From the NCBI GenBank assembly GCA_944392315.1, contig CALXWH010000002.1, positions 31,441 to 95,440 on the forward strand: DNA of 64,000 nucleotides, written 5' to 3'. Below, in pieces: positions 18,160 through 38,000 of this stretch. Each line of letters begins with the position of its first letter. Position 1 is the stretch's first letter. The translations under genes and the position numbers were made by a program. Under the pieces are notes generated by a model that did no database searches, was not told the DNA's origin, and worked only from the letters and a program-made list of their open reading frames with translations. Source of the stretch: an uncultured Alphaproteobacteria bacterium (GTDB lineage Bacteria > Pseudomonadota > Alphaproteobacteria > RF32 > CAG-239).

Positions 18160-18171
18160 TTCTTAAGTTAC

Positions 18172-18259: not shown

Positions 18260-18266
18260 TTTAAAG

Positions 18267-18295: not shown

Positions 18296-18488
18296 CTGGC
18301 ACTGGTATTTTGCTCACTGTTTTATCCACCATTTAGACAAAATATATCTTTTTTCTTTACTTTAATTTAAGACTTTGCTGATATATATTTATTCGTAGAT
18401 ATTTTTTACTCTATTTGTAAAAATAATTATTGACAAAAATAAAACTTCCTGTCATTTATTATGTCAATAATAAGAAAGGAAATAAATT

Positions 18489-18713: not shown

Positions 18714-18725
18714 AAAATAAAATAT

Positions 18726-18766
18726 TTGTTGTTGCTTGAAGTCCGCTTTAAATGGCGGACTTTTTT
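18726..18766 (+). terminator. Rho-independent terminator after the small ORF.
   Basis: agtccgc-tttaaatg-gcggact followed by ttttttt. It lies inside the 5' end of the annotated 398-aa ORF, so that ORF's real start is further downstream. Confidence 0.65.
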
Positions 18767-18884
18767 TGTACTTAATAAATCAGCCTTACCGCTTCCGTTT
18801 TATTTTATCAAAAATCTCTTGCAAATATTGCGCAAATTTATATATTCATTGGTGAGATTTAATATTTATTATAAGGAGATTATA

Positions 18885-19922: not shown

Positions 19923-19935
19923 TTAAAAAATTATT

Positions 19936-19962
19936 GAGCCGTAGAAATACGGCTCTTTTTTT
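19936..19962 (+). terminator. Terminator after fba. An imperfect second hairpin follows at ~19966-19990, which may terminate infC on the opposite strand.
   Basis: gagccgta-gaaa-tacggctc followed by ttttttt. Confidence 0.6.
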
Positions 19963-20007
19963 ACAAAAAAGGCGGCCATTTGACCACCTTTTCTTTTTTT
20001 TGCTATA

Positions 20008-20562
20008 TTACTTTGCAGGAGATACTATCATAAACATCTGCTTTCCTTCTAATTTGGGAGCAGAATCTACTTTACCAATCCCTTCCAAATCTTCTATCAA
20101 TCTGTTCAGAATTTCTTTTCCCATGTCATTGGCGCTCATTTCACGACCTTTGTAACGCATTGTAAACTTTACTTTATCTCCTTGTTCAAGGAATTTTTTC
20201 GCCTGCTTTACTTTTACCTCATAATCGTGTGTATCAATCATCGGGCGCAATTTTAACTCTTTGATATTTACAACTTTTTGATTCTTTTTTGCCTCGTTCT
20301 TCTTTTTTTGCATCTCGTATTTATACTTGCCGTAATCTAATACTTTGCAAACCGGTGGAGTTACTTGGGGAGAAATTTCAATCAAATCAAGCCCTACTTC
20401 TTGAGCTATCTTTAAGGCCTCTGTAACTGAAACGACACCTAAATTTTCTCCATTATAATTGATTAAGCGAACTTCTTTTGATTTTATTTCACGATTTATG
20501 CGTGGTCCGTCACTTTCACGTACTGGCGCATTGGTATTTTCTGTAGCTATGGTTGCCTCCAA
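20008..20562 (-). CDS. infC: Translation initiation factor IF-3.
   Basis: IF-3 N- and C-domain motifs (…INREIKSKEVRLI… / …VKFTMRYKGREM…). The true start may be a non-ATG codon upstream, as is usual for infC. No rpmI-rplT downstream. Confidence 0.85.
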   Translation of the reverse strand: MEATIATENTNAPVRESDGPRINREIKSKEVRLINYNGENLGVVSVTEALKIAQEVGLDLIEISPQVTPPVCKVLDYGKYKYEMQKKKNEAKKNQKVVNIKELKLRPMIDTHDYEVKVKQAKKFLEQGDKVKFTMRYKGREMSANDMGKEILNRLIEDLEGIGKVDSAPKLEGKQMFMIVSPAK

Positions 20563-20648
20563 TTAAAATTAATGTTACTTTTTATATAATAGTTATATTT
20601 ATTATACTTCGCAACAAAAATCTTTGAAATTTTTCTAATTTATCAGCT

Positions 20649-21509
20649 TTATAGAGCTTTACTGAATCTGCTTTTTATTTGCCACAATGAGTGATTTTTG
20701 AATATTGTTTGCGCCTTTGAAGTATAGTATTGAGAGTGCGCAAATAAGACCTCCCCTTTTTCTTTATTAAAATCTATACCCACAAAGCCTTTTGATATCA
20801 TATAATCTATCATTTCTAAGCGCTCAAACGGAATTGATATCTTAGGCTTAAAACACGATAAAACACTTTCCTTATCTATCGGCTTATGCAAGAGTGATAT
20901 TTTTCCACCATCAGAGGGATCCATAGCCGTCTCAAAAAGATTAAATCTGCTGGCAAAATAAGGCGCCATATTCCAACGATTTTTTCTATCTACTATTGAA
21001 GTACAATCTGTGCATCCTAATTTTTGAGCCAACTCCAAACGATAGTTTATCATTACTGTATTTAAGGAATTACCACGATAAATCGGCAGCACAGAATCCC
21101 CACCCATTGAGCCTACTTTATTTTTTCCATAATTTCTCTTGCTATAAAAAAAATCGTATTTGCAATTTGGCAACTCCTCTTGTAACTCACTTTTGCTTTG
21201 ACAAATTCGCAAATATGACATTCCGATTAAATGATTTCCGACAAATACGCCAATATACCGAATTTGCGGATTTTCAAACACTTCATGAAAATATTCTTTT
21301 GTGTGCTTATGGATAAAACATTCTTCTCCACTTTTTAAATGTTCATAAATGTTTTCAGATAATTTTCCCATTTGCTCGGCATCTGTACAATTTAATGGAC
21401 GGATGTAGAAATTAATGGCTTTTTCTTGTTTGATATTATCAATTTTGTGGAGTTTACCGACCCAAATATTTGTACCATTAACTTCATATTTCTTTATTTC
21501 TGAACTCAT
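20649..21509 (-). CDS. Hypothetical protein (~286 aa), possibly with an acyltransferase-like fold.
   Basis: The ORF extends to 21557, but a stable hairpin with a T-run (21521-21547) lies in the first codons on the same strand. The internal Met (MSSEIKK) at 21509 is the more plausible start. No confident family assignment. Confidence 0.45.
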   Translation of the reverse strand: MSSEIKKYEVNGTNIWVGKLHKIDNIKQEKAINFYIRPLNCTDAEQMGKLSENIYEHLKSGEECFIHKHTKEYFHEVFENPQIRYIGVFVGNHLIGMSYLRICQSKSELQEELPNCKYDFFYSKRNYGKNKVGSMGGDSVLPIYRGNSLNTVMINYRLELAQKLGCTDCTSIVDRKNRWNMAPYFASRFNLFETAMDPSDGGKISLLHKPIDKESVLSCFKPKISIPFERLEMIDYMISKGFVGIDFNKEKGEVLFAHSQYYTSKAQTIFKNHSLWQIKSRFSKAL

Positions 21510-21749
21510 CTTCTTTTTCCATAAAAAATGCGGGGTAATACCCCGCCATTTATTCATCTTGTTTAATTTGAAACACAGACTTACTCAAACGACGGGATAT
21601 GCTCCTGACGTTTTATCTTCATCTGTTTTGTTGCTATTGATTGTAGCATTTTGTTGTTCCTCTTAAACATTTTGGGGGTATTCTATATTGTTCTGTGGTA
21701 ATCTGTCAATAGATTTTCTATATTTATAGAGAATCGGTTTGGAGTTTAG

Positions 21750-23825
<2,076 letters not shown>

Positions 23826-23834
23826 TTAAAACTT

Positions 23835-24566
23835 TTATATTTTTGGAGTACGTTTGCGCTTGTAAAATACCTTGTATATGTCAACAAACATAACATTGAA
23901 AAATATGGCTAAAACGGAAATAACGTATATATGGCTATTTATTTTAAAGGCTATATCAATTGCGTACGAAAGTATGCATAAACCACTCATAAATAGGCCG
24001 CATCCGACAAAATTCCAATAATTTCCTTGAGTCTTTTTATAGGCGTCAAGAATTGAACGACTCTTGCCTATAACTGATGATAACCATGCTAAATAAGGGC
24101 GACTTATTGTATATGGCGACAACAATAGCATTAAAATATAGAATAATGTTTTACCTAGCAGAGAATCGTGGCTTTGCAATATTTCCATATAATTTTCAAA
24201 AAATTCTAAGTACTTATCCCTAAACCCCATAAACAAAGGAATATATGGAGCAACAACCAGCACTAAGTAGATGCTGATGTTTATAAACATTATCTTGCTA
24301 GCTGGTATTAAGCCGTTAAAAATCCTTATGAGGGAGAAATATGGCGGATGTTGCTGAATATGGCGAATAAAGATACACCAATAAACATAATATCCCACTA
24401 ACCATAAAATACTTAAAGAATTTGTCCATCCGTTTGGAATTAAAGAAAAAGCATAAAGGAAAGCAAAATTTACTAAAGTCCAAAGAATAAAAGTTCTTTT
24501 ATAGAGCAGTACGAACTTCATACTGCTCTTGATTGAGGACAATAGAGAAAAACTTTTTGCCTCCAT
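23835..24566 (-). CDS. Polytopic inner-membrane protein (about six TM helices), last gene of the VirD4-centred operon.
   Basis: Hydrophobic helices throughout. The ORF overlaps the VirD4 stop, so the Met at MEAKSF (~24566) is the likely start. No family recognised. Confidence 0.5.
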   Translation of the reverse strand: MEAKSFSLLSSIKSSMKFVLLYKRTFILWTLVNFAFLYAFSLIPNGWTNSLSILWLVGYYVYWCIFIRHIQQHPPYFSLIRIFNGLIPASKIMFINISIYLVLVVAPYIPLFMGFRDKYLEFFENYMEILQSHDSLLGKTLFYILMLLLSPYTISRPYLAWLSSVIGKSRSILDAYKKTQGNYWNFVGCGLFMSGLCILSYAIDIAFKINSHIYVISVLAIFFNVMFVDIYKVFYKRKRTPKI

Positions 24567-24576
24567 TGCGGAAGAT

Positions 24577-26796
24577 TTACGCTTCGTCTTCTTCAAAACC
24601 TTCCTCTTCTTCTGCATTAGGATCATAATCTATACCTAATTTTGACAAGATATCTTCATTTTCATCCGTTCTTTGGGCCACAATCCAATCTGGAACCCAT
24701 GGTGAATGTGGCAATTTAGACATTGCCAACATTTTTTTATCCAGATAAAAACGAGGCGCATCTGCCATAATCGGTGTATCAATTGAGCCTTGCATCAACA
24801 CTACTTGTTTTAGCATCGGCAAGCTCAACAAGTCATTCGCGCTTATGGCTGAAACACCTTGTAGCTGATAACTTACGTTTTTAGCAAACGGATTGTACTC
24901 TTTAGCCAAACTTCCTTCTTGTCTGCTGTATGACGTTGTTTGTACCGTTTTGTTACCAATCATTTTGGAGAAACGTTGGGCTGTTTGTTCGTTGTTTTGA
25001 GACAAAATAACTTTACATGCCGTTGTTGAAATTACTGTTTCTAGGTCATCCTTTCCATATTTACCGGAAATTTGACCTAAGTCTTGTCCAATCAGCAAAT
25101 AAGATACTTTTTGACCACGACCTACCGCAGGACCATCAATTACCGCTTTCAACTTCGGCATTTGCGGAAACTCGTCTAGCACAAACAAGGCAGGAAATGG
25201 TCCCATCTTGCCATCAGTCGGGTGTACTGAGTTTGGCGGATTTGAAATCAAGTATGCACTAATTAAATCCACAAATGTTGCACTAATCGGGTTTAAGGCT
25301 TGTGCATCGGTTTGGTTAACAGACAGATATACAGAAATAGGTTTCCATTCTCCGGTTACAGGGTCTTTCATTCCGCGCAGATCTTTAAATTGAATATCGG
25401 AAAAACTTGTTCTCGCAACAACAGCAGAGTTTTTGAAAATACCGATACCCGTTAAACCGGTTGACATAACTGAGCCACGCTCTTTATCCGGCATCGCACT
25501 CAACGCACTCAACTCTGTTACGCAACGACGTGAATAGCCATAATTATTGGCTTCTTCCACCGCAGCGTCAAGCAAATCACGCATTGGATCTGCCATTGCG
25601 GCCATTTGGTCGCCTTCTTCTAAACGACGTTTAATCTCGTTTGCTTGCTCAATTTGTGAGGAGGTAATCCATTCCAAAATCATCGCCATACATGGTTCAT
25701 GATTTACCCATTTATCTGGTAATAAATTCCATGTTCCTATCGGCAAATAATTTTCTATAGTTAAATTACCGTTTTGTAAATCTTGAATCGCTCGTGCAGC
25801 ATTTGCTCGCAAGCCACCAATGCTCATATCATCATAGTATTGCATTAGCTCGGCTTTGTCTTCTGCGGTCATTGAGCCTTCATATATTTTTTGAATAAAG
25901 CGCTCATTGGCCAGAGCTCGTTCGCATTTTGATGATATAAAGTGAATAAATCCACACAACGCACTACGACCGGTTTTTGACCAGTGAGGGTCTGCACCAC
26001 CTTTTGGATCTTCCACTAACGTATTGCACATTGAGTCAACATACAAATCTCGGTCAGGACCTGGTTTTGGTAAAGCCCCCGGTGATAGAGGATTCCAGCT
26101 CGGATAGTATTCACCCGTTGCAGGGTTATCTTCTTTACCCCAGTTAATCACAAACACCGGACCTACTTTGCTTCTCGCTCCTGTTGTTTGATAACATAAC
26201 TCAGGCTTCGGGTCGTTCACGATAATACTTAATCCTTCTGAATTAAAAATTGTCGGAATTACGACACCTGCCGTTTTACCAGTTCCCGGAGGCGCACAGC
26301 ACAAAGTTGACAATGTTTCTTTCAATTTCAGCATTTTACCTTGGAATTTTCCGACCACCATGCAAAAACCGTCAAATCCAAGCAGAGGCATATTTTCAAT
26401 ATCTCGTAAGGTTGCAATATGCGCAGAACCATGAATGTTTGATTGGAATTTATATGGACACTTTATTCCGCCAACCAATAAAATGATTGGAAAAGATAAA
26501 AATGGCAGAATCGGCGGCCATAAACTTATTTTAAACTCTCCACTGTAATGGTATATTTTTCTAAACCATCTCATATACCACTCCCATAAGTATCCGAAGT
26601 CTCCTAAGGATTTTTTCAAGAATATTCCCGCAACCTCCATACTCTTTTTAGATATGCCGTTTTGCATTAAAAAAGCAATTATTGGCGATAAATAAAGAAA
26701 TGCTACGGTTACCGCTACTGATATGGCAAAAGTTATTGTCATCCAGCGCACCGCGTTATCATATTCTTCCCACTCTTTTCCTCTTTCTTTTGCCAT
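24577..26796 (-). CDS. virD4: Type IV secretion coupling protein (VirD4/TraG/TrwB family ATPase).
   Basis: Two N-terminal TM segments, Walker A CAPPGTGKTAGVVIPT, Walker B FVLDEFPQMPKL, an IGQDLGQ motif and an acidic C-terminal tail …EEEEGFEEDEA, all typical of T4 coupling proteins. 739 aa. Confidence 0.85.
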   Translation of the reverse strand: MAKERGKEWEEYDNAVRWMTITFAISVAVTVAFLYLSPIIAFLMQNGISKKSMEVAGIFLKKSLGDFGYLWEWYMRWFRKIYHYSGEFKISLWPPILPFLSFPIILLVGGIKCPYKFQSNIHGSAHIATLRDIENMPLLGFDGFCMVVGKFQGKMLKLKETLSTLCCAPPGTGKTAGVVIPTIFNSEGLSIIVNDPKPELCYQTTGARSKVGPVFVINWGKEDNPATGEYYPSWNPLSPGALPKPGPDRDLYVDSMCNTLVEDPKGGADPHWSKTGRSALCGFIHFISSKCERALANERFIQKIYEGSMTAEDKAELMQYYDDMSIGGLRANAARAIQDLQNGNLTIENYLPIGTWNLLPDKWVNHEPCMAMILEWITSSQIEQANEIKRRLEEGDQMAAMADPMRDLLDAAVEEANNYGYSRRCVTELSALSAMPDKERGSVMSTGLTGIGIFKNSAVVARTSFSDIQFKDLRGMKDPVTGEWKPISVYLSVNQTDAQALNPISATFVDLISAYLISNPPNSVHPTDGKMGPFPALFVLDEFPQMPKLKAVIDGPAVGRGQKVSYLLIGQDLGQISGKYGKDDLETVISTTACKVILSQNNEQTAQRFSKMIGNKTVQTTSYSRQEGSLAKEYNPFAKNVSYQLQGVSAISANDLLSLPMLKQVVLMQGSIDTPIMADAPRFYLDKKMLAMSKLPHSPWVPDWIVAQRTDENEDILSKLGIDYDPNAEEEEGFEEDEA

Positions 26797-26817
26797 TTAC
26801 ACCTCTAATAAACAAAA

Positions 26818-28119
26818 TTAAGCCAAACTACGTATAAGTTTTTTAAGTTTTTCAAATGTGTTTTTATCTGTTTTTTCTTCACAATTGTCTAAAGATTTGG
26901 AGAACAAACGAATCTCTTTTGGACTTCCTCTGTTGATACGTGTCACATTGATATTCATATTGTTCCAAATTTCAAACATATCTTCCGCATTTATGATGTT
27001 GCCAGATTGAATAATTACGTACGATACTATCTCAAAATTCATATCTCCAACAGCAAGTTTTGTTTTTAATATATCGCGAGCTATGTCTACTTTTCTTACC
27101 GGAGAAATGCGATGACTACTCTCTGAAAACCATAACGGTTCTTCATCATTAAATTTCTCTTCATCGGCTAACCAATCACCTATTTCTTTATCTACCAAAC
27201 ATAGAATAAGCTGATTTTTTGATACCGCAACATAATCTATTGTTGTATTTTTGATTATTGCAGAGGGAATTACATCATATCCTTTTTGATTAAGCACATC
27301 TAACACCGGTGTATGTGATTCTTTTATTGGGGCGGGTGTCTGATTGTCTTGCTGTCTGTTCTTTTGCTGATTGTCTTTCTTATTATTTGAATTTTGCCCT
27401 TTATCTTGGTGTTGAGGCTTAGAGGTAAATTCAGGTTCTTTCTCGTTAACTATTTCTGCTTCTATTGTTTCCGGTTTATCAACTACAAGGGCTGATGGAA
27501 TATCATCATCTATATCGGGCTTCTTATCTTTTTTCTCAAAATCAAAATCTAAATCAAAATCATCATCGTCAAAATTAAATAAGGCATGATTTGTCGGAAT
27601 CTCTGCATTATCTTTTTTAGCTGGGGTATACGGTGATGCAGTTCTTGAATTCAAATTGCTGTTTATATTGGATTGCAATAACGTTGCTGAAGGCAATGGG
27701 GGTCTTTTCATTGGAGCTTTTTTGATAATCGGTGTCTTTTTTACAACTTTAGGCTCTTCTGCTATTGATTTTTTCTTAACAACAACGGGAGCTTTTGTTT
27801 TTAATGTGATTTTTCTGAATGCATACAACGGACTCAAAACGACTTTTTTAACCAGTCGTTCCCATTTGACCAAACATAGCCCTACCCAACCTGCTATCCA
27901 CAAAGGAATTGAGCTCACAACAATCATAAAGAAACCTAATTCGGAATTACTTATTGGCGCTCCGCTGTTCCATTTATACCCTAGTAATCTCCAATGCTCT
28001 GCTAATAAGATATCAAAATGCCAGTTAATCAGCAACAAAACCCGAATGCCATCTATGAAGACTATACTCCATAAATAACCTACTATCAGCGTTTTTAATA
28101 TTATTATTAGCGGTTTCAA
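26818..28119 (-). CDS. Membrane-anchored protein with a Lys/Pro-rich disordered linker, an acidic DFD repeat and a C-terminal globular domain.
   Basis: N-terminal 2-3 TM helices, then KKxPxxKK repeats, then an FNFDDDDFDLDFDFEKKDKKPDIDDD acidic stretch, then a ~200-aa C-terminal domain. No motif matches VirB10, TonB or TolA C-domains. Confidence 0.5.
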   Translation of the reverse strand: MKPLIIILKTLIVGYLWSIVFIDGIRVLLLINWHFDILLAEHWRLLGYKWNSGAPISNSELGFFMIVVSSIPLWIAGWVGLCLVKWERLVKKVVLSPLYAFRKITLKTKAPVVVKKKSIAEEPKVVKKTPIIKKAPMKRPPLPSATLLQSNINSNLNSRTASPYTPAKKDNAEIPTNHALFNFDDDDFDLDFDFEKKDKKPDIDDDIPSALVVDKPETIEAEIVNEKEPEFTSKPQHQDKGQNSNNKKDNQQKNRQQDNQTPAPIKESHTPVLDVLNQKGYDVIPSAIIKNTTIDYVAVSKNQLILCLVDKEIGDWLADEEKFNDEEPLWFSESSHRISPVRKVDIARDILKTKLAVGDMNFEIVSYVIIQSGNIINAEDMFEIWNNMNINVTRINRGSPKEIRLFSKSLDNCEEKTDKNTFEKLKKLIRSLA

Positions 28120-28171
28120 GTTTTTCTCCGGTTTTATTCCTTATTGTATGTTGGTATTAGTTAATAAGTCA

Positions 28172-28684
28172 TTATTGTTTTTCATTTTCCTCTATTTTTG
28201 CAGCAATTTGTTTTCTTAAATTTGCCGCTTCATGTGATGCCCCTTTGTTTCCGCCTTCTTGTTCTATTTTATCTTTTATTATTTCATCCAATGTTTTATC
28301 CTTTGAACCTAGATTTTTTATAGATACATGTTCTATTTCCATATTTTTGGGGCGAGTTAAACGTCTATATAGCGTAATAAACGGTTTTCCGAAAAATTTG
28401 CCTAGGCCATATTTGTAGAGTTTGTAACTAAGGATCAACCATGCTATGGGTAGTAATATTAAGCACACACCTAAACTACAATCACGAAATGTATTGAAAA
28501 CGCCGCCGTTTTCCCAATATTCATACATTATTCTATATGATTGAATATTGAAAATATCAAATTTCCATAACAACTTAAAAAGAAATTGCCCAACATAGGC
28601 CAATACAACAAAAACAATTATACTGCTAGATAAAAATCTTATCATTTTACCTATTTTTTTCATATTTAGCTCCTTATCTTCCAA
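28172..28684 (-). CDS. Small two-TM membrane protein with a charged cytoplasmic tail.
   Basis: Two hydrophobic helices followed by a K/E-rich C-terminus. Overlaps the upstream gene by 11 nt. Confidence 0.45.
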   Translation of the reverse strand: MEDKELNMKKIGKMIRFLSSSIIVFVVLAYVGQFLFKLLWKFDIFNIQSYRIMYEYWENGGVFNTFRDCSLGVCLILLPIAWLILSYKLYKYGLGKFFGKPFITLYRRLTRPKNMEIEHVSIKNLGSKDKTLDEIIKDKIEQEGGNKGASHEAANLRKQIAAKIEENEKQ

Positions 28685-30287
28685 ACCTATATTCTCTTAT
28701 AGCCTTAGAAAATTGCTTTTCGGTTAACGTAAACTCATCTTTTTGGGTGGCAGCTTGTCTTTCTGATATTTTTTGGCCGTTTATTTCAAAATTATCTATT
28801 GCTTTATTTATTTTTGCAACGGCTTCTTTGGCTTGTTTGTGTTTGCTGCGGTCATTGATGTTTTTCTCAATGATTTTATCTGTTTCTACTTTTGCTGCTT
28901 TGCCGGCATTATTAACCGAGGTCAGGTATTGCTTGATATTTTCTTTTATTGTTTCTGGATTATCTCTGTTTGCCTCGTGTATTTTATCTATATTTTCCAT
29001 CAATTTTTGGTAATACTGTTGGCTGCGCTTTTGGATGTGTGCTTTTATTATTTCTTCATTATCAATAGCATCCTTGCTTGCCGTCCTTACTTCTTTGATT
29101 TTTTCAGATACTTTTTTCCTTATTTCTGCGATTTTTTTGCCGTCATTTGCAATTTTACTAATTTCTTCTAATTTCTTGTTAATTTCTTTACATGCTGTAT
29201 CATCTCCGCCTATTTCATTTTGTAATTCTACAACCTCCGTTGCAATGTTCGTTTTTAATTGACTGATATCTAAACTTTTATTTTTTATAATTTTTTCTAA
29301 ATTATCTAATTTATCTGAAAACTCTGGAGATATTACATTTTTTGCACCACTTATTACTTCTTCTATCGTGGCTAATCTGGTGGCTATCGTAAATATTTTT
29401 TCTTCTTTTGCAAAGCGGCCGGCTACAATTTCTTTATCTACACCTAAACCATACTTTTGCATGAAATCAGCTTCAGGTGATGATGGATCTGCCATAGCTT
29501 TTTCTTGGATTTCACATAATTTTCTATAAAAATCCGGCTCTCTACCCCATAACACCCATGTTGGAGCAATGCCATCTTTTGTTTTAGCAAGATTTTCATT
29601 GAGCTCTATAAGTTTTTCTTTTTCTTTTGCAAATCTATCTGCCCGTTCTTTGTAAAATTCATCACCTATCATATAGATATTTTTTTTGGCCTTTTCTTTT
29701 TTTTCTTCAACCTTACCTCCAGATTTATAAGGTGCAAATAACACCCACTCTGCAAAATCTAATGTGTTGTCCACAATGGCATCTATTCCCCATGCATAAA
29801 ATGCCATAATACAATCATTCCAGAAAACTTCCATAATATTATCACCGCCGGATTTTCCTTTTGTTCCGCCTCTGTCACGTTTTGGCGGTACAATAGAACC
29901 TTTGGATACAACATTTTTTTCTTTCTTATCTTTCGGTGCTTTGGTATCAAACCCCTCTATTGGCATTTCATCGTAAGCTCTTGATATGCCATCAGGTGTT
30001 CTTTGCGGCCTTCTCGGTTGTGGTTGAGGGGATTCTGGCTGATTTTGAGAGGTTTCGTCTTGATTATGATTATTTTCTCTATTTTCATTAGAATCTGTTT
30101 GTGTAGCCTCTGTTTCTGTGGTGGATTCGTTGGCATTTTCTGAGTTAGATTGTGTCTCAGATGTTTCTGTTTCACTACTTAAAGAATTTCCATCCATGTG
30201 GAGATTTTCTTCAATTTGTTTGTCTATCTCTTCTGACAGTTTTTTATTTTCTTTATCTAAATCATCCATCTGAGAATTGGTTACCAT
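28674..30287 (-). CDS. Large acidic protein with a low-complexity N-terminus and a coiled coil (537 aa).
   Basis: N-terminal S/T/E/N/Q-rich region (…ETETSETQSNSENANESTTETEATQTD…PQPQPRRPQRTP…), one hydrophobic segment (IMEVFWNDCIMAFYAWGIDAIV), then a long K/E heptad-like region. Confidence 0.5.
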   Translation of the reverse strand: MVTNSQMDDLDKENKKLSEEIDKQIEENLHMDGNSLSSETETSETQSNSENANESTTETEATQTDSNENRENNHNQDETSQNQPESPQPQPRRPQRTPDGISRAYDEMPIEGFDTKAPKDKKEKNVVSKGSIVPPKRDRGGTKGKSGGDNIMEVFWNDCIMAFYAWGIDAIVDNTLDFAEWVLFAPYKSGGKVEEKKEKAKKNIYMIGDEFYKERADRFAKEKEKLIELNENLAKTKDGIAPTWVLWGREPDFYRKLCEIQEKAMADPSSPEADFMQKYGLGVDKEIVAGRFAKEEKIFTIATRLATIEEVISGAKNVISPEFSDKLDNLEKIIKNKSLDISQLKTNIATEVVELQNEIGGDDTACKEINKKLEEISKIANDGKKIAEIRKKVSEKIKEVRTASKDAIDNEEIIKAHIQKRSQQYYQKLMENIDKIHEANRDNPETIKENIKQYLTSVNNAGKAAKVETDKIIEKNINDRSKHKQAKEAVAKINKAIDNFEINGQKISERQAATQKDEFTLTEKQFSKAIREYRFGR

Positions 30288-30366
30288 TTTATTTTCTCCT
30301 CTTTTATGTTTTGTTTATGGTAACATAAAAACATATTCTTGTCTACTTTAAACACTCCGTTTTTTC

Positions 30367-31458
30367 TCAGACCTTTAACTTTTTTATAAATTCTCCTATT
30401 TTTTGATTAGCTTTTATACCATCTTCAGGGGTTACTTTGATTAACCCAAAGAATTTAGGGCGAATCTTATCAAATTCTATTGGAGAAAACATTGCCGGAT
30501 TCTTGGTCAGGGCTTTATAGGCTCCTTCTGTATCTTTTTGCGCTGCCTTAAAATAATTTCCAATCAATTTTTCTGCATTGATTGGGAAATTCTTTTCTTT
30601 TAATTTTTTAATAAAAAGAGTGCGTCTTTCTTGTAATTCCATGTATTCATCGTATAGCTCTTTTTTTATTCTATTTTTCTGAACGATTTCTTTCTTTTGC
30701 TCATAACTTACTTCGCATATCTCTAAATTTATCAAAATTTCAACATAAGATATGATGGCTAACTGCATATCTGTATCATTTAAACTTTCTGCGAAAGTCA
30801 GATATTCTTCATCACCGGCATCTTTGGAAAGTCTTTTCATATTTTCAGGGTCATATTTATTTAGGATATCCCAGCAATCTAATAGATATTGTGCAATTTT
30901 TTTGCCAATGCTCGGTTTGTAGTTCGGATATAACAAGTCTTCTGTATAATCGGTATCTGGCGTTTTTAAATTCTTTTTTTCGGCCAAGGCTGTAATTCCG
31001 TCCCTAAAATTGGTTACTGCTCTGGCCAATTCTTTCTCTTCATCTTTTAATTTAGATTTTTCTTCGGGCACAACTTGTTGTTTTACAACTGTTATGTTTT
31101 GTAAATCAGACAAATTATTTATTGTTTCTTGCGGTGCGGTATTCTCTACTTTATTTTGCATTGGCTGAGAAGTTGTGCCCGGAGTATTGGTTTTAGCTTG
31201 TTGGGGCGTGTTATTCGTTGTTATAAAACTATCCAATCCGCTTCCTGCCTCAGACAAGAAACTATCTAGAGTTTCTTCTTTTGCTTCTTCATTCTGTGGT
31301 ACTGCAGTTTCTTTACTTTGATTTATAAAATCGTTTAGTAGCTTTGCAAATTCATCTTCTATTTTAACTGTTGTTGATGGTTCTTCTTTTTCTTCTGTGC
31401 TTTGTTTTTCTACGCTTTGATTCAAAAAATCATCTAATGACTTTATATCATCACTCAT
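30367..31458 (-). CDS. Acidic cytoplasmic hypothetical protein (363 aa).
   Basis: No TM segments. Disordered acidic N-terminal half and helical C-terminal half. Overlaps the upstream small gene by 8 nt. Confidence 0.5.
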   Translation of the reverse strand: MSDDIKSLDDFLNQSVEKQSTEEKEEPSTTVKIEDEFAKLLNDFINQSKETAVPQNEEAKEETLDSFLSEAGSGLDSFITTNNTPQQAKTNTPGTTSQPMQNKVENTAPQETINNLSDLQNITVVKQQVVPEEKSKLKDEEKELARAVTNFRDGITALAEKKNLKTPDTDYTEDLLYPNYKPSIGKKIAQYLLDCWDILNKYDPENMKRLSKDAGDEEYLTFAESLNDTDMQLAIISYVEILINLEICEVSYEQKKEIVQKNRIKKELYDEYMELQERRTLFIKKLKEKNFPINAEKLIGNYFKAAQKDTEGAYKALTKNPAMFSPIEFDKIRPKFFGLIKVTPEDGIKANQKIGEFIKKLKV

Positions 31459-31756
31459 CTTTGTTATCCCCCTTATTTAGGTTGATTGTTAAAATATTTT
31501 CTTTATTATCCTCATTGATGATCATTATTTTGTCTGTGATTGGTGTTGTTATCAAAATATACAGTTTTTTATTTTCTGCCCATATTTGCTTTACTTTCGC
31601 ATTTTTTGCTATATTCAAATTGATTTCTTTGTTGTTTTCTTGTGATTCTGTATGCGTTTTCTTTGCAAAAATTTTCAGAAAAATCATATATGTACATATA
31701 ACGATACATAAACTTAGTATAATCACCATGCTTTTTAGAATATTTTGTTTTGTCAT
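31451..31756 (-). CDS. Small bitopic membrane protein (101 aa), first gene of the operon.
   Basis: A single N-terminal TM helix (SMVIILSLCIVICTYMIF) then a polar extracytoplasmic region. No known family. Confidence 0.4.
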   Translation of the reverse strand: MTKQNILKSMVIILSLCIVICTYMIFLKIFAKKTHTESQENNKEINLNIAKNAKVKQIWAENKKLYILITTPITDKIMIINEDNKENILTINLNKGDNKDE

Positions 31757-31834: not shown

Positions 31835-32824
31835 ATGGACACTAAAAATAATAAAGTTTTTTTTACTAATCCTGTTGATGATGAGCAAAAAGCTTTGCGG
31901 CTTGATAAGTTTATTGCGGAGCAAATTACCGAATTATCTCGTGCACAAGTGCAGAGATTAATTGAAAGTGGGTACGTTTTTGTTGATGATGAGGCTCTTA
32001 TTGATAAAAACTATAAAACTCGCGTCGGTGATATCTATCAGATTATATTGCCCGAACCGCAAGAAGCTATGCCTGTCCCTGAGGATATTCCTCTAGATAT
32101 CCTCTTTGAGGATAATGATGTTATTGTTGTCAACAAGCCTGCTGGGATGACCGTTCATCCGGCTGCTGGGGTTCATTCTGGAACTTTGGTTAATGCTTTG
32201 CTCTACCATTGTAAAGAATCTTTATCGGGAATCGGTGGTGTGGCGCGGCCCGGCATTGTTCATCGTATTGATAGAAATACCAGCGGTGTACTGGTTGTTG
32301 CAAAAAATGATTTTGCCCATAGGGGGTTGGCTGAACAATTTTATAATCACTCAATTGAACGAACCTATTATGCTGTTGTTTATGGCGCTCCTAATCCTCT
32401 TAACGGTACTATTTGCGGGAATATTGCGAGAAGTTCTTATGATAGAAAAAAGATGGCTCTGGTTAAAATTGGTGGAAAATCTGCCGTTACGCACTATCAA
32501 ACAATTGAACAATATGCCAAAGGGGCTGTTTCTTTGGTTAAGTGTAATTTAGAAACGGGGCGTACACATCAAATCAGAGTTCATTTATCTTCAATCGGAT
32601 GCAATCTGGTGGGAGATGATGTATATGAAAAAGCAAAAAAAACAATGATTAAATTGCCGCAGGACGTTAAAACTTATGTTAATTCTTTCTCAAGGCAAGC
32701 TCTTCACGCCTATTCTTTAGGGTTTATTCATCCAAGAACGCAGCAATTTCTATCTTTTCATGCAGACTTTCCGGATGATATGAAAGACTTAATTCAAATG
32801 CTAAAAGAAGTTTCTTCTTGCTAA
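31835..32824 (+). CDS. rluD: 23S rRNA pseudouridine synthase, RluD/RluA family, with an N-terminal S4 domain.
   Basis: Catalytic motif …VHRIDRNTSGVLVVAKND… and an N-terminal S4-like RNA-binding segment. Confidence 0.85.
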   Translation: MDTKNNKVFFTNPVDDEQKALRLDKFIAEQITELSRAQVQRLIESGYVFVDDEALIDKNYKTRVGDIYQIILPEPQEAMPVPEDIPLDILFEDNDVIVVNKPAGMTVHPAAGVHSGTLVNALLYHCKESLSGIGGVARPGIVHRIDRNTSGVLVVAKNDFAHRGLAEQFYNHSIERTYYAVVYGAPNPLNGTICGNIARSSYDRKKMALVKIGGKSAVTHYQTIEQYAKGAVSLVKCNLETGRTHQIRVHLSSIGCNLVGDDVYEKAKKTMIKLPQDVKTYVNSFSRQALHAYSLGFIHPRTQQFLSFHADFPDDMKDLIQMLKEVSSC

Positions 32825-33826: not shown

Positions 33827-33893
33827 CCTTGAAACTTTTCCTTTGCTTATTATCTATTTTGTAAGTGAAAAACAGATTTTAAGGATAGGATTG

Positions 33894-35027
33894 ATGAATA
33901 GCTCTAAAGAACGGTTTATTTACATCTTTTTATTAATTTTTCTGTGTCTGGCTTCTTTTGGGTTAGGGGTTTATGTTTTTAAATCTGAAAACCATCTGGA
34001 AGCCAGACCATTGCCGCAATCAGATAGTATTGTTCTAAAGGCAAAGCCAATTATTCCGCAGGATAACATTGTAACTAAAAATTATGTCGGTTTTGTGGAA
34101 GCCATAAATCAGGTACAAATCATCCCCTACATTAACGGCTACTTGCAAAATATCGCCATAAACGCCGGGCAAAATGTTCAAAAGGGTGATTTATTGTTTA
34201 CTATCAATCCTGATGAATATCAGGCAAAACTTAATATTGCAAAAGCAGCTGTTTTGCAAGCTCAGGCCGATTTTGAATATAATCAAACTTACTATAACCG
34301 TGTTTTAAAATCTGGCCCTAAAGCGTTTTCAGAAACGGAAATAGATAGTGCCAAAAATAATTTTCTTCAATCTCAGGCCAATCTTGAAAACGCCAAAGCC
34401 AGTTTAGAGTTGGCGCAAGTTAATTTGAATTATACAGTTGTCAAAGCTCCTATTTCCGGTCTTATCGGCAATTTTACACTTAGCCCTGGTGACTATGTAT
34501 CCCCTTCTTCCGGTGCTTTGCTCAATATTGTACAGATGTCTCCGGTTCGTATTGTTTTTTCATTAACCGATACGGAATATTTGAATCTCAAAGAAAATAA
34601 TCATCCTTTGTTTCAGGACTGCTCTATTCGTTTAATTTTATCTAACGGAACAGCGTTTGAACATTCAGGAGATTTTAAATACACTGATAACCAGCTTGAT
34701 AAATCAACAAATTCTTTAGCTGTTTATACTTACTTCAGAAACGACAATTATCAACTTTTCCCTAATTCTTATGTCACCGTTGAAGTAAACAGACAATTTA
34801 AAAACACCGTTTTAATTTCTAAGGAACTTGTGCAGATGTTACCTAACGGTAATTTTATCACCATTGCCCGAAATAATGTTCCACAACACATTCCTGTTCA
34901 AATTTTAGCTGATACCGGAGAAAGTTATATCATTAAAAATGTTTTTCAATCCGGTGATTTATTGTTACTTGAAAATCTTCCTAATCTCTCTAAAGGCACC
35001 CTCGTTCACTTTAATATCGTTTCATAG
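33894..35027 (+). CDS. RND efflux periplasmic adaptor (membrane fusion protein, HlyD/AcrA family).
   Basis: Signal-anchor, then coiled-coil hairpin, lipoyl and beta-barrel segments (…VKAPISGLIGNFTLSPGDYV…). Immediately upstream of the RND pump. Likely start MNSSKERF. Confidence 0.8.
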   Translation: MNSSKERFIYIFLLIFLCLASFGLGVYVFKSENHLEARPLPQSDSIVLKAKPIIPQDNIVTKNYVGFVEAINQVQIIPYINGYLQNIAINAGQNVQKGDLLFTINPDEYQAKLNIAKAAVLQAQADFEYNQTYYNRVLKSGPKAFSETEIDSAKNNFLQSQANLENAKASLELAQVNLNYTVVKAPISGLIGNFTLSPGDYVSPSSGALLNIVQMSPVRIVFSLTDTEYLNLKENNHPLFQDCSIRLILSNGTAFEHSGDFKYTDNQLDKSTNSLAVYTYFRNDNYQLFPNSYVTVEVNRQFKNTVLISKELVQMLPNGNFITIARNNVPQHIPVQILADTGESYIIKNVFQSGDLLLLENLPNLSKGTLVHFNIVS

Positions 35028-35031
35028 TTAA

Positions 35032-38000
35032 TTGGGAGAAGTTCCTATGTTTTCCAAGTTTTTTATTGATAGACCTCGTTTTGCTTTGGTTATATCTATT
35101 ATTTTAATGATACTTGGTGCGCTTGCCATTAAAATATTACCTATTTCGCAATTTCCTAACATCACACCGCCGCAGGTCACTGTTCAAACAAATTATTTAG
35201 GTGCCAATGCGCAGGTTTTAACCGATACGGTTGCCGTACCTATTGAAAATCAAATCAATGGGGTTGAAAATATGCTTTATATGTCTTCAACTTCTGATGA
35301 TAACGGGAGTTATAATTTAACTGTTACTTTTGATATTGGTACTAATCCGGATATTGCCCAAGTTAAAGTTCAAAATCGCTTACAACAGGTAAACAGTGAA
35401 CTTCCTGATGAAGTTATTCAAGATGGGCTTGATGTATCAACCGAAAATGCAGATATTTTGGCGCTTATTGTTTTGCGTTCTCCTAATCATTCCTATGATG
35501 ATTTATATTTGAGCAATTATGCTTATACAAATATCAAGAACCCTCTTTCACGTTTATATGGGATTGGGCAAGTGCAAATTTTCGGCCCTCAATATAGTAT
35601 GCGAATTTGGCTTGATGTTGATAAAATTACCGCTCTTGGGCTAAGCAGCGCCGATATTATTCAGGCTGTTCAAAATCAAAACGTTCAAGCGGCCGTGGGC
35701 AGTATTGGTTCGGCTCCGAGTACTAAAGACTCTAAACTTGTTTTTACTTTAACAGCGCAGGGATTGCTCAACAGTGTTCAAGATTTCTCTAATATTGTGG
35801 TTGCCACATCTCCTAACGGTGGAGTGACTTATCTAAAAGATGTAGCAAAGATTGAGCTTGGTCGGGATTCTTATAACATTAACTCCAAATATGATAATTC
35901 TCCGGCGGTCATTATCGCGCTTAATCAAACCCCAAATACAAATGCGTTAGAAACTATGGACGACGTTCAAGCAGAAATAGATAAGTTGTCGCAAACGTTT
36001 CCGGATGATATGGAAATTAAAATTGCTTATGATTCAACAGATTATGTTCGTGCCTCTATTGCTGCCATTGTTGAAACATTATTTATCACTTTCAGTCTGG
36101 TTATTCTTGTTACCTATCTATTTTTACAAAAACTAAAAACAACACTCATCCCTTTAATTACCATTCCTGTTTCTTTAATTGCTACTTTTATTGTTATTTA
36201 TGTACTTGGATTTGATATCAATATATTAACTTTGTTTGCAATGATTCTGGTTATCGGTTTAGTGGTTGATGATGCGATTATTGTGGTGGAAAGAGTGCAA
36301 TACCTTATGCTTAATGAAAAGCTCAATGCCTATGACGCCTCTGTAAAAGCTATGTCTCAAATTGGCAGTGCTATTGTTGCGACAACTTTTGTTTTATTGG
36401 CTATTTTTGTTCCTGTTGGTTTAATGGTGGGGATTACCGGAAAAATTTATCAGCAATTTGCGGTTGCTATTGCAACGGCGGTTATATTCTCCGCTTTTAA
36501 TGCCTTGACGCTTAGTCCCGCATTGTGTGCTATTTTTCTTAATCATGAAAATGACGGGAAAAAATTTGTGTTTTTTAGAATATTTGATGATGCTCTTGAT
36601 AAATTTAAGGCTCTTTATGTAAAAATTGTCGGCTTTTTCTCACGTTTTTTACTTATAACAACCTTGGTTATTTTAGCAATAATTTCTCTTATCTTTATTG
36701 CTTTCAAAATTACTCCGACCTCTTTTATTCCGGAAGAAGATCAGGGAATTATCTTTGCAAATATACAATTAGATACCACCGCCAGCATCAATCAGACAAA
36801 TAACGTCTTATCTGATATGACAGATAAAATCTTAAAGATGGAGGGCGTAAAATATGTTATCACTGTTGCCGGATACAGCCTACTTGGTGGCGGCGGTGAA
36901 AATGTTGCCTTAGGCGTTATAGGCTTACAAAATTGGTCCGAGCGCACAACTAAGCAGTTGTCTATTGAAGGGATATCTCGTTCTTTAAGAGATAAATTTC
37001 GCTCTTATCCTAATGCGGAACTTAATTTTTTTGCGCCGCCATCTGTTCCGGGAATTGGTCAAAGTAACGGTCTTTCTCTGGAATTGATTGCCAATAATAC
37101 CAATGCAACACCTAAAGAACTTGATGATGTCTTAAAAAAATATTTGCAAGAGCTCAATCAAAACCCAAATTTGGCTTATGCTTTTAGTACTTTTACTGCC
37201 GATACACCCCATTTGTACTTAAATATTGATCGGACTAAATTGCAATCCTATAATGTTTCTGTTGCAGATTTATACAATACTTTGCAAGCAAATCTGGGGG
37301 CTACGTATATTAACAATATTACTTTAAGCGGGCAAGTTAATCGGGTTATTTTGCAAGCTGATTTTAATTACCGTCGGACAATTGATGATGTCAAAAATCT
37401 TTATGTTAAAACGAATTCTGGAAATTTGATTAAAATTGGCAGTTTTGCAGACGTTTCTACCGAATTATCTCCAACCATTATTTATCGTTATGATTTGTAT
37501 ACAGCCGCAGCCATTACTGCACAAGCTGCTGAAGGGGTGAGCAGTGGTGAAGCCATGGATGCTGTTGAAACTATCGCTCAAAAATCCTTGCCCGACGGTT
37601 TTGCTATTGATTGGACAGCTCTTTCTTTGCAAGAATCAGAAACTCGCGGACTTGTTGGTGCTTTAATTGCGCTTGCCGTTGTCTTTTGTTATTTGTTTTT
37701 AGTTGCCCTGTATGAAAGTTGGATGTTGGCCTTTTCGGTTATGTTTTCTACAGTTTTTGCCGTGTTAGGAGCCTTTATCGGTTTACACTTATTTGGCCTT
37801 CCTCTTAGTATTTATGCTCAATTAGGTGTCATTTTACTCATCGGATTAGCTGCCAAAAATGCTATTCTCATCGTGGAGTTTACTAAAGAATATCGTGAAA
37901 AAGGTAATAGTATTCTTGAGGCTGCCGAAAAAGGTGCCGGTGAAAGATTTAGAGCGGTTTTGATGACGGCTTTAACTTTTATCTTAGGGGTATTTCCAAT

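Follow-up and report, generated by a model that had tools for sequence, protein, structure and literature searches.

A VirD4-family coupling ATPase and a candidate membrane-tethered, nuclease-fold partner in a core chromosomal locus of uncultured Alphaproteobacteria

Type IV coupling proteins (T4CPs) are commonly encoded apart from the channel genes of their secretion systems, as the plasmids RP4 and Ti exemplify, and on many plasmids the coupling protein is encoded together with DNA-processing genes rather than with those of the channel. Substrate recruitment by such proteins may involve an adaptor, for which the interaction between the tail of TraD and TraM of the F plasmid is the precedent. 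Mobilisable elements that have a T4CP but lack a channel also exist, namely, those of the CloDF13 type, and the MOBC relaxases belong to the PD-(D/E)XK superfamily (PMC12857230). The operon described here, found in a stretch of 64 kb of alphaproteobacterial DNA (the window), would mirror the plasmid layout in which a coupling protein accompanies putative substrate-processing genes. It consists of seven co-directional open reading frames on the minus strand, all of them present at exactly the coordinates listed in the earlier note, which are given below together with the two flanking genes and the evidence used.

21753-23825, plus strand: ligA, flanking the seven-gene run
23835-24626, minus strand: 263-aa multi-pass membrane protein, overlapping the stop codon of the T4CP gene
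24577-26796, minus strand: 739-aa VirD4/TraG-family T4CP (Pfam, hydropathy, conservation in 81 species)
26818-28119, minus strand: 433-aa putative T4CP partner with membrane hairpin, disordered tether and NERD-like nuclease-fold domain (synteny, AlphaFold model m58ec4ed98231)
28172-28684, minus strand: 170-aa two-TM protein with a short helical cytoplasmic tail (BLASTP, HMMs, alignment)
28674-30287, minus strand: 537-aa hypervariable protein (slot synteny, identity, motif conservation)
30367-31458, minus strand: 363-aa acidic cytoplasmic protein
31451-31756, minus strand: 101-aa bitopic protein of the DUF6476 family, first gene of the co-directional run
31835-32824, plus strand: rluD-type pseudouridine synthase, on the other flank

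The overlaps of 8, 11 and 50 nt reported previously are consistent with these coordinates, although the 11-nt one is probably a short gap, because orthologues of the 170-aa protein start at the position of its Met-8 and the overlap would need a TTG start; the true start of this gene is probably the ATG at 28663. None of the six neighbours of the T4CP in the window has a significant family match in Pfam or NCBIfam.

This order of genes is more than chance, being found again in 85 related loci, each from a different species-level genome. Wherever the contig allows, all 85 show the 363-aa gene, a variable slot occupied in the window by the 537-aa gene, the 170-aa gene, the 433-aa gene and the T4CP gene, in this order. 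These five genes are the constant core, and not seven lineage-specific genes, as had been proposed. Upstream, rluD is found in 71-72 loci and rpoH in 69, while the downstream flank differs between lineages and ligA is found there in 19 loci only. The rluD side alone being constant, and the G+C content of the block being equal to that of its flanks, the idea of a block inserted between ligA and rluD gives way to that of a vertically inherited core locus with no inserted island. The operon belongs to the chromosomal core of a large alphaproteobacterial clade of uncultured bacteria from gut and rumen, and proteins related to the 433-aa one are encoded in the genomes of 178 species.

This distribution bears on two readings of the locus. 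The reading of the block as the remnant, now in decay, of a mobilisable or integrative conjugative element that landed by chance between ligA and rluD could appeal to the channel-less CloDF13-type elements (PMC12857230) and to the variable downstream flank. However, the block occupies the same rluD-rpoH position in 71-72 species, strong purifying selection acts on its T4CP, whose motifs are intact, and its G+C content does not depart from that of the flanks. Moreover, neither flanking direct repeats nor a tRNA target were found at the block, no relaxase or integrase was found in the window or within 10 kb in related loci, and searches of plasmids and viral contigs gave no match to the 433-aa protein. 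Shared synteny, purifying selection and the lack of mobility genes largely refute this reading, which we regard as extremely improbable. The second reading is an anti-phage or anti-plasmid defence system, made up of a membrane ATPase plus a nuclease, but PADLOC returned no model at a meaningful score and PHROG no matches, the block is found throughout the clade in conserved synteny rather than as part of a variable island, and its neighbours are housekeeping and not defence genes, which makes this option very unlikely.

To judge by its domains, the 739-aa protein is unambiguously a true VirD4/TraG-family coupling protein, as the earlier note held: the Pfam families T4SS-DNA_transf (7e-53), TraG-D_C (2e-22) and TrwB_AAD_bind (3.5e-17) all exceed their gathering scores, and the nearest solved structures are those of Helicobacter pylori Cag5 (3e-9) and TrwB. 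Two N-terminal TM helices (hydrophobic residues 16-34 and 90-108 by hydropathy) are followed by a nucleotide-binding domain, into which an all-alpha segment is inserted, and the protein ends in an acidic tail. The helices had been noted before, as had both Walker motifs and the tail; the latter three are present and conserved, and lie as follows.

26266-26295, minus strand: Walker A, APPGTGKTAG, residues 168-177
25168-25182, minus strand: Walker B, VLDEF, residues 539-543
24580-24612, minus strand: C-terminal tail, EEEEGFEEDEA, acidic and aromatic-containing

Among 81 species, CCAPPGTGKTA is at least 98% invariant, and G173 and K174 are invariant even when compared with plasmid VirD4s; in the wider family, D541 never varies, and the conservation of E542 and F543 is 90% or more. 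In the tail it is charge and not sequence that is kept, the last 20 residues having a median net charge of -10 (range -14 to -4, 81 species) with variable letters. Overall, 42% of the T4CP columns are at least 98% invariant and identities span 67-100% (81 species). Median identity to the window is 71% for the T4CP (minimum 67%), 76% for RpoH, 61% for RluD and 42% for the 433-aa protein, so that conservation of the T4CP is comparable to that of the heat-shock sigma factor encoded beside it. With its Walker motifs intact and invariant, the protein would be an active ATPase in the reading that we prefer.

The 433-aa gene lies directly upstream of the T4CP gene in 85/85 related loci, with a median gap of 15 nt. 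What had been described as a C-terminal globular domain exists, and is more exactly a NERD-like PD-(D/E)XK nuclease fold, held by a tether to a membrane hairpin.

27835-28119, minus strand: two-helix membrane hairpin, residues 1-95 (hydropathy and model)
27538-27579, minus strand: acidic-aromatic motif FNFDDDDFDLDFDF in the tether (alignment and regular expression)
26821-27312, minus strand: NERD-like PD-(D/E)XK nuclease-fold domain, residues 270-433

The hairpin is hydrophobic at residues 4-22 and 66-84, with helices at 2-52 and 58-94 in the AlphaFold model, and its conserved connecting loop is rich in W, H and D (N32, W33, F35, D36, H42, W43, W50, G53 and E60 are invariant). The tether, of about 170 residues, is disordered, first basic and then acidic; in the region of FNFDDDDFDLDFDF, H178, L180, F181, D184, D186, D187, F188, D189 and D193 are invariant in a six-sequence alignment, and a strict regular expression finds the F-x-F-D...DDFD pattern in 52/89 family members. 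The nuclease-fold domain has a triad, D295 / D310-(K/R)311-E312, and an invariant block, GDWLADEE..FNDEEPLWFSESSHRISPV; D295, D310 and E312 are present in 87/87 sequences, of which 86 have K or R at position 311. The domain could, however, be a protein-binding module and not a DNA enzyme, since the position of the canonical ExK lysine is an invariant glutamate, the domain is acidic (median pI 4.9) and its invariant block, of 32 residues, is acidic and modelled with low confidence. MOBC relaxases provide a precedent for a relaxase of the PD-(D/E)XK superfamily, yet the 433-aa protein has no sequence similarity to any protein of 72,556 plasmids, MOBC relaxases included. The literature and the reference libraries that were consulted gave no example of a T4CP paired with a tethered nuclease-like protein.

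As for the remaining core genes, the 170-aa protein is a paralogue of the 433-aa hairpin: the N-terminus of the 433-aa protein matches the 170-aa orthologue of locus L001 by BLASTP (33% identity over 79 aa, E 4e-12), and HMMs of the two cross-hit in most of the 85 loci. The 363-aa protein has an N-terminal EDEFxKLLNDFI motif and, beyond a disordered central region, a conserved C-terminal domain that is entirely helical (residues ~139-362) and forms a generic bundle, not a DotM-like one; the analogy with DotL-DotM-DotN drawn earlier fails at the level of fold. The 537-aa protein combines a low-complexity N-terminus, one conserved motif, a Lys/Glu-rich remainder (a putative coiled coil) and a positive C-terminus. 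Its slot holds a single ORF of 440-1069 aa in every locus, with a median identity of 28%, mostly undetectable by BLAST, and DI(I/M)..x..ND..W (residues ~150-166) as the sole conserved stretch.

Based on these results, our preferred reading, to which we give a probability of roughly 40%, is that the operon encodes that half of a type IV pathway which processes and recruits substrates, with the 433-aa protein as a previously undescribed obligate partner of the coupling ATPase. First, the hairpins of the 433-aa and 170-aa proteins would assemble in the inner membrane with the TM domain of the T4CP hexamer. Second, the tether would keep the nuclease-fold domain at the cytoplasmic opening of the T4CP, where it would cut or hold the substrate, most likely DNA, as a functional analogue of restriction-endonuclease-like MOBC relaxases. 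Third, the helical 363-aa protein may act as adaptor for the acidic-aromatic tails and motifs, and the T4CP would power the passage of the substrate through the inner membrane to a type IV channel, assumed to be encoded elsewhere in the genome. We infer complex formation solely from gene neighbourhood. Across the clade, a coupling ATPase is core-encoded and always paired with a membrane-tethered nuclease-like protein.

No VirB2-B11 genes were found in the window, nor within 10 kb of the T4CP at 91 loci, and a HUH or Tyr relaxase or integrase gene was likewise absent from the window, with no VirB, relaxase or integrase within 10 kb in related loci. The earlier claim that there is no secretion apparatus therefore stands for that local scope, and the claim that there is no relaxase stands for the HUH and Tyr types only, given the PD-(D/E)XK fold of the 433-aa domain and because MOBC relaxases share this superfamily (PMC12857230). 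The locus likewise yielded neither a conserved DNA hairpin nor an oriT-like element, which together with the lack of local channel genes counts against the preferred reading.

Another reading is a channel-independent inner-membrane machine, namely, a T4CP lineage that lost its link to secretion and became a housekeeping DNA translocase and processor with a tethered partner; it might move DNA out or in through the inner membrane, or clear or process DNA at that membrane. The T4CP stands alone among housekeeping genes, with no VirB within 10 kb, at 85/85 clade loci and at 7/7 loci (six proteins) of non-clade relatives of 36-54% identity, and is itself conserved at housekeeping level. By contrast, the nearest plasmid T4CPs, 32-35% identical over full length, are the last genes of ordinary virB2-B11/virD4 operons on alphaproteobacterial megaplasmids; they branch as sister to the clade T4CPs, a placement that suggests descent of the latter from channel-linked T4CPs and speaks for the preferred reading. 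So does the persistence of the pair outside the clade: the outgroup loci L092/L093 lack the 363-aa, slot and 170-aa genes and encode a T4CP of 54% identity, whose gene overlaps by 4 nt that of a partner detected by HMM (E 3.7e-53). More distant chromosomal T4CPs each have a pentapeptide-repeat protein ahead, and proteins of this kind are known DNA mimics (MfpA/Qnr), so the partners of both orphan groups are DNA-related. However, we know of no T4CP that works without a type IV secretion system, the genomic view covers 10 kb on either side of the T4CP, unlinked T4CP genes are common on plasmids (RP4, Ti), and the protein keeps an acidic tail of the kind typical for T4CPs that bind substrates or adaptors. 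We consider such a machine rather unlikely.

The nature of the substrate raises another alternative, doubtful but to be taken seriously, in which the T4CP works for a protein-translocating type IV system that is unlinked and vertically inherited, as in Rickettsiales, and the neighbours of the T4CP are adaptors and substrates: the 537-aa protein a secreted effector recognised by its positive C-terminus, the 363-aa protein a chaperone or adaptor, and the NERD-like domain a non-catalytic docking module. The slot protein is always present, evolves very fast and has no strongly hydrophobic segment, so nothing in it is Sec-signal-like by hydropathy. A positive C-terminus, for which the earlier note proposed a check, is there, with a median net charge of +2 in the last 20 residues and R or K at the end in 47/74 species, but the signal is weak (median rank 0.2 among internal 20-mers). 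In 17 sister species and in outgroup L092, two genes come after that of the T4CP, one for a ~200-aa protein whose H..N..H..H motif is invariant, the other for an immunity-like protein of the SUKH type, and they recall the toxin/immunity pairs of bacteria-killing type IV systems; this pair, however, is missing from the lineage of the window. Both the C-terminus and the pair point to protein substrates. The pentapeptide-repeat proteins ahead of distant T4CPs find a parallel in Rickettsia typhi, whose coupling protein co-precipitates such a protein (PMC11077975), and the acidity of the NERD-like domain and its lack of the canonical lysine would suit docking. Against this, channel genes were not found locally at any locus, and an acidic triad invariant in 87/87 sequences on the catalytic strands is hard to square with a mere docking module.

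Outside the constant core, the 101-aa protein is only uncertainly linked in function to the T4CP. At least 49 loci have a gene of its type in the interval from rluD to the 363-aa gene, and its orthologues in loci L001, L007 and L008 score 29.4, 27.9 and 24.9 bits for DUF6476, against a Pfam gathering score of 24. The 263-aa gene is accessory, being present in 22/85 loci, each time directly after the T4CP. Its product, without a family match in Pfam or NCBIfam and previously counted as having six TM segments, shows four strong hydrophobic ones at the threshold used, six not being clear, and has the conserved motifs PYF, PLxMGF..KY..FE.YM and SP....RP.

The block of seven minus-strand ORFs (101, 363, 537, 170, 433, 739 and 263 aa) was confirmed at 23835-31756, as claimed in the earlier note, between ligA (21753-23825, plus strand) and an rluD-type gene (31835-32824, plus strand). 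The 739-aa protein (24577-26796) is the coupling ATPase, or T4CP, and the gene of the 433-aa partner lies directly upstream of it. A scan with an alignment of the 433-aa protein, using one genome per species, found relatives in 178 genomes, and every one of the best 80 of these 178 belongs to uncultured gut or rumen Alphaproteobacteria. Across 85 loci of this clade, HMM searches recovered a single gene order as far as the contigs permit, namely the 363-aa gene, a large ORF, the 170-aa gene, the 433-aa gene and the T4CP gene; the slot between the 363-aa and 170-aa genes always holds one ORF, of 440 to 1069 aa. Upstream, the block is flanked by the divergent genes rluD (71-72 loci) and that of an rpoH-type sigma factor (69 loci). 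The downstream flank varies: the 263-aa gene follows in 22 loci, 19 loci have ligA there, and 17 have a pair of genes of about 200 and 149 aa. One locus with a complete alphaproteobacterial block, L078 (JAISVX010000003.1, 829 kb), is titled 'Lactobacillaceae bacterium', and is probably a mislabelled or mis-binned metagenome-assembled genome (MAG).

The description of all seven genes as a lineage-specific unit stands for the fixed order of five genes, and had to be abandoned for the other two. First, orthologues of the 101-aa protein in three related loci clear the gathering score of 24 for DUF6476 (PF20082), with 29.4 in L001, 27.9 in L007 and 24.9 in L008, so the gene is not lineage-specific; the window copy is more diverged, with no Pfam match at E ≤ 1, yet is homologous to these orthologues. 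A functional tie of this gene to the T4CP is doubtful. Second, the 263-aa membrane gene, present in those 22 loci only, is accessory.

It had also been proposed that the block was inserted between housekeeping genes. Its position is, however, constant in 71-72 species, its G+C is that of the flanks, and the search for att-like flanking repeats gave only short AT-rich chance matches. The constant upstream flank and the absence of att-like repeats show that the block is no island but a core locus passed on vertically, and the same observations, with the flank-like G+C, make it hardly credible that we are dealing with the remnant of an integrative conjugative element. A role in defence is very unlikely, as the PADLOC matches of all seven proteins (best E 0.0045-0.38, low scores, partial coverage) are not meaningful; PHROGs likewise returned nothing meaningful for any of the seven.

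The remainder of the window is of housekeeping character, with cdsA, rseP, bamA, lpxD, fabZ, suf genes, sucCD, glgP, fbaA, infC, an RND pump, tgt, recN, bamD, lpxC, glmM, exbB and others; its sole tRNA gene, for tRNA-Ser, lies 5.5 kb away from the block, and the window also encodes the RNase P RNA. Beyond rpoH, an RND efflux set (33843-39595) comprises a membrane-fusion protein, a 1056-aa pump and an outer-membrane OEP-domain protein, and in L005 and L006, which are closer relatives, genes for the membrane-fusion protein and the pump likewise adjoin rpoH. Eight window ORFs, 151-342 aa long, remain without a Pfam match at E ≤ 1e-5: 15584-16450 (+), 16555-17499 (-), 20649-21557 (-), 39596-40051 (-), 40784-41743 (-), 54783-55559 (+), 55610-56293 (+) and 58060-59088 (+). 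In L005 and L006 an uncharacterised gene of 280-284 aa between ligA and infC is similar in size to the ORF at 20649-21557, and in L006, a relative from a bovine metagenome, the start of a 2830-aa protein without Pfam match is found downstream of infC (17083-22226).

Among the seven block proteins of the window, only the T4CP matches known families in Pfam and NCBIfam. The Pfam matches are T4SS-DNA_transf (E 7e-53, 180.5 bits, cut-off 20.1), TraG-D_C (2e-22, 79.9 bits, cut-off 22) and TrwB_AAD_bind (3.5e-17, 62.8 bits, cut-off 20.5); the NCBIfam VirD4/TraG equivalog models match too, every one under its own cut-off, and the protein is therefore a divergent member of the family. As a phmmer query against the PDB the T4CP alone retrieved nothing at 1e-3, and a wider T4CP profile retrieved Cag5 and TrwB. 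Hydropathy places two N-terminal transmembrane helices at residues 16-34 and 90-108. Walker A (168-177) and Walker B (539-543) are kept in 81 species, and both fall among the 42% of columns that are at least 98% invariant in the 81 T4CPs aligned. Identity across at least 81 species is 67-100%, and a strongly acidic tail is present in all of them (median charge -10 over the last 20 residues). Judged by these sequence features, the ATPase looks active; its constraint is of housekeeping level. Homologues of 72-94% identity are plentiful in gut metagenomes, in MAGs titled 'Azospirillum sp. CAG:260', 'Acetobacter sp.' and 'Alphaproteobacteria bacterium'; a single T4CP orthologue has entries in as many as 7,040 blocks of the assembly collection, and an exhaustive HMMER search gave 5,252 T4CP relatives.

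Median identities to the window proteins across the loci are 76% for RpoH, 71% for the T4CP (minimum 67%), 61% for RluD, 45% for the 363-aa, 42% for the 433-aa and 28% for the 170-aa protein. For the slot protein, the product of the ORF between the 363-aa and 170-aa genes, the median is 28% and similarity to the window copy is mostly undetectable; conserved only in a short motif near residues 150-166, it is an extremely fast-evolving partner. The C-terminus of the slot protein has a mild positive charge, with a median of +2 for the final 20 residues, and 47 of 74 copies end in R or K. The 363-aa protein is helical and carries an EDEFxKLLNDFI motif.

The 433-aa protein, an obligate partner encoded translationally close to the T4CP, was modelled with AlphaFold on the basis of 80 sequences. 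The model comprises a long hairpin of two helices (residues 2-52 and 58-94), disorder from 113 to 264 and a confident alpha/beta domain (270-433, pLDDT about 90), predicted to have a restriction-endonuclease-like fold. All 87 family members have D295, D310 and E312, and residue 311 is K or R in 86. Of three consecutive strands in the model, D295 lies in the second and D310 ends the third; we equate these with the nuclease core's strands 2 and 3, and on this assignment the usual E-x-K would read D-(K/R)-E. The lysine position of D...(D/E)-x-K is then occupied by glutamate throughout the family, with K/R between the acidic residues; a D...E-x-E variant is active in BamHI. With NERD (PF08378) the domain shares the PD-(D/E)XK core, in which strand 2 bears an aspartate and strand 3 an acidic residue, and it differs from NERD in the replacement of E-x-K by D-(K/R)-E and in a unique, invariant acidic insert, GDWLADEE..FNDEEPLWFSESSH. 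Matches to the Pfam NERD model are weak: 42 of 80 homologues reach E ≤ 0.1, the best of them 3.4e-5. The window copy itself has none at E ≤ 1. The acidic block GDWLADEE..FNDEEPLWFSESSHRISPV, of 32 residues, is nearly invariant and is modelled with low confidence.

The nuclease-fold domain is acidic (median pI 4.9), and the tether that precedes it is first basic (pI 11.0) and then acidic, with a conserved FNFDDDDFDLDFDF-type motif; by the positive-inside rule, tether and domain would be cytoplasmic. The N-terminal hairpin and the 170-aa protein are paralogues: they share 33% identity over 79 aa (E 4e-12), and HMMs of the two match reciprocally in most of the 85 loci. Sequence and profile searches of the PDB with the partner families gave only noise, and the literature searched holds no NERD-T4CP pairing and nothing on the 433-aa partner.

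The earlier claims on missing components were borne out locally. No T4SS apparatus, relaxase or integrase gene was found elsewhere in the 64-kb window, and VirB2-B11 homologues are absent from it and from within 10 kb in 91 loci. Family HMMs for VirB/Trb components matched none of the block neighbours. A phmmer search in which the VirB2-B11 proteins of the nearest two plasmid systems were compared with 7,056 ORFs (window plus 88 loci) returned VirD4 only, with limited sensitivity for small components. As the searches covered the window and the surroundings of the loci, 'no T4SS' is a local statement. Relaxases of the HUH, Tyr, HD and Rep_trans families are absent from all window ORFs, and the only relaxase candidate in the window is the 433-aa protein with its PD-(D/E)XK fold. 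No conserved hairpin or repeat that could serve as oriT was found at the block. A terminator scan had offered an oriT-like 12-bp perfect inverted repeat (30557-30588, in the 3' part of the 363-aa gene), which was rejected: orthologues are without it (ranked within each gene, folding energy has a median of 0.52), so we take it as chance. Promoter-like sites are not more frequent than in shuffled sequence. Literature searches on RF32/CAG-239 secretion, on NERD with coupling proteins or T4SS, and on orphan T4CPs yielded nothing relevant.

What is new here is a T4CP of the core genome whose partners form a fixed and novel set, at its centre a NERD-like protein of nuclease fold that is tethered to the membrane. 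Coupling proteins are gatekeepers of conjugation and effector secretion, and normally reside on mobile elements or beside their own channel, in contrast to the window T4CP, a slowly evolving core gene of very widespread gut bacteria that is locked to a nuclease-fold membrane partner. Our preferred reading, to which we tentatively assign a probability of about 0.4, is that the operon is a DNA-processing and recruitment module: the partners would surround the T4CP hexamer as a complex in the inner membrane, the nuclease-fold subunit would stand in for a relaxase, and the operon would feed a channel encoded elsewhere. The DNA-processing reading draws on two points. First, plasmid T4CP genes usually travel with DNA-processing genes and not with channel genes (RP4, R388, F, Ti). 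Second, MOBC relaxases are restriction-endonuclease-like, PD-(D/E)XK enzymes (PMC12857230). If a channel exists elsewhere, the operon would represent, in commensals that abound in the human gut, a substrate-processing or adaptor set of a new type, and perhaps also a new means, other than HUH, by which DNA is made ready for transfer.

The closest parallels bear on this reading to different degrees. The Dtr (DNA-processing) operons of conjugative and mobilisable plasmids, above all those of MOBC type (CloDF13, with MobB as T4CP and MobC as relaxase; pAD1 TraX), likewise combine a T4CP, a PD-(D/E)XK-superfamily protein and accessories, with the T4CP gene away from channel genes. Unlike them, the block has a nuclease-fold protein anchored in the membrane by a hairpin and a long tether, with Glu at the active-site lysine position; the locus is not mobile, and an oriT was not found. 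Moreover, tblastn (E ≤ 0.01) found no relative of the 433-aa protein, MOBC relaxases included, encoded on 72,556 plasmids, nor was one seen on the viral contigs scanned. VirD4/TraG/TrwB proteins of VirB-type (MPF-T) systems share with the window T4CP the family, two N-terminal transmembrane helices, the Walker motifs, the TraG-D_C region and the acidic C-terminus. The nearest plasmid T4CPs, among them the VirD4 proteins of Sphingosinicella p1 and of a megaplasmid of Erythrobacter aureus, are 32-35% identical over their full length and close ordinary virB2-B11/virD4 operons of Sphingomonadales megaplasmids; unlike these, the window T4CP is core chromosomal, has no channel gene nearby and comes with other upstream partners, which form a fixed set. 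The interpretation of the earlier note is, as a whole, partly supported and is sharpened here. It had envisaged a receptor or recruitment complex loosely analogous to DotL-DotM-DotN. As in the Legionella type IVB complex DotL-DotM-DotN-IcmSW-LvgA, a T4CP has partners of its own in the inner membrane and the cytoplasm, with their genes beside its own, and the 433-aa partner, encoded upstream, resembles DotM in having N-terminal transmembrane helices and a presumably cytoplasmic C-terminal domain. No homology to DotM, DotN, IcmS/IcmW or LvgA was found among the partners, nor any fold likeness in the two that were modelled, the 433-aa and 363-aa proteins, for which a DotM-like identity was ruled out by fold.

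T4CP genes related to that of the window also occur outside the clade, the closest of them in the following contexts.

T4CP loci outside the clade (T4CP protein, identity, context).
L092 and L093: P0361, 54%; a clear homologue of the 433-aa protein (HMM E 3.7e-53), whose gene runs 4 nt into the start of the T4CP gene.
L094: P0362, 51%, from a 'Rickettsiales' MAG; lone T4CP amid housekeeping genes.
L098 and L099: P0365, 54%; lone T4CP amid housekeeping genes.
L095, L096 and L097: P0374, P0364 and P0372, 36-40%; pentapeptide-repeat gene at the T4CP start, housekeeping surroundings.

No VirB genes lie within 10 kb of the non-clade T4CPs examined. In L092 and L093 the T4CP gene is followed by a pair of about 212 and 144 aa, and the 363-aa, slot and 170-aa genes are missing. 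The pentapeptide-repeat genes encode 330-437 aa (L095 9006-9998, L096 8772-10001, L097 8691-10004); the first abuts the T4CP start codon, and the others overlap it by 1 nt in L096 and 4 nt in L097. In a rough neighbour-joining tree without support values, the plasmid genes are sister to the gut group plus L092, L094, P0365 and P0366, and the T4CPs of the pentapeptide group fall outside that clade. These contexts indicate that the pair of T4CP and NERD-like protein is the ancient core of the locus and that orphan chromosomal T4CPs are a wider phenomenon, of which the pentapeptide-repeat gene with its T4CP is a second kind of orphan T4CP and partner module.

The same contexts lend some credit to a rather unlikely alternative, that of VirD4-type ATPases of uncultured Alphaproteobacteria freed of T4SS channels altogether and acting as a core, housekeeping inner-membrane motor with DNA-related partners. 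There are no linked channel genes in the 85 clade loci or in seven further loci (six outgroup proteins), and pentapeptide-repeat proteins are DNA mimics. The partner may then be a tethered NERD-like protein in the gut clade and a pentapeptide-repeat protein in distant lineages. If there is no channel, a coupling protein would for the first time have a function independent of a T4SS.

Finally, a platform that recruits protein effectors is possible, if doubtful. It would accommodate the fast evolution of the slot protein, and also a gene pair found 14-18 nt after the T4CP gene in 17 sister species and in the outgroup L092 (12265-12903 and 12900-13334). The 17 are L001 (12237-12851 and 12835-13284), L007, L027, L029, L030, L032-L034, L037-L041, L044, L047, L050 and L054. 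Its first gene encodes about 200 aa with a conserved MWEWS N-terminus and invariant H142..N157..H167..H171 (H-N-H-like), and its second about 149 aa resembling SUKH_5/SMI1-KNR4; from their sequences the two look like a toxin/immunity pair. The window lacks it and has the 263-aa membrane gene instead. A further link is to the Rickettsiales rvh T4SS: RvhD4 is bound by a pentapeptide-repeat protein (PMC11077975), and the related orphan T4CPs have genes for such proteins just before them. The VirD4 of the rvh system is likewise alphaproteobacterial, vertically inherited and slow-evolving, in host-associated bacteria with scattered T4SS genes. Rickettsiales virD4 remains beside virB8-B11, unlike the window T4CP, none of whose partners is known to belong to an rvh system.

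Two observations on non-clade loci may be added. In L092, a co-directional gene for a 92-aa RHH_4 (ribbon-helix-helix) protein (8483-8761) lies directly upstream of the NERD-like partner and the T4CP; RHH proteins are the usual auxiliary proteins of relaxosomes. In L096, a Cas9-like gene (1-2444; RuvC_III, faint HNH_4) and cas1 are found about 8 kb from the pentapeptide-repeat/T4CP pair.
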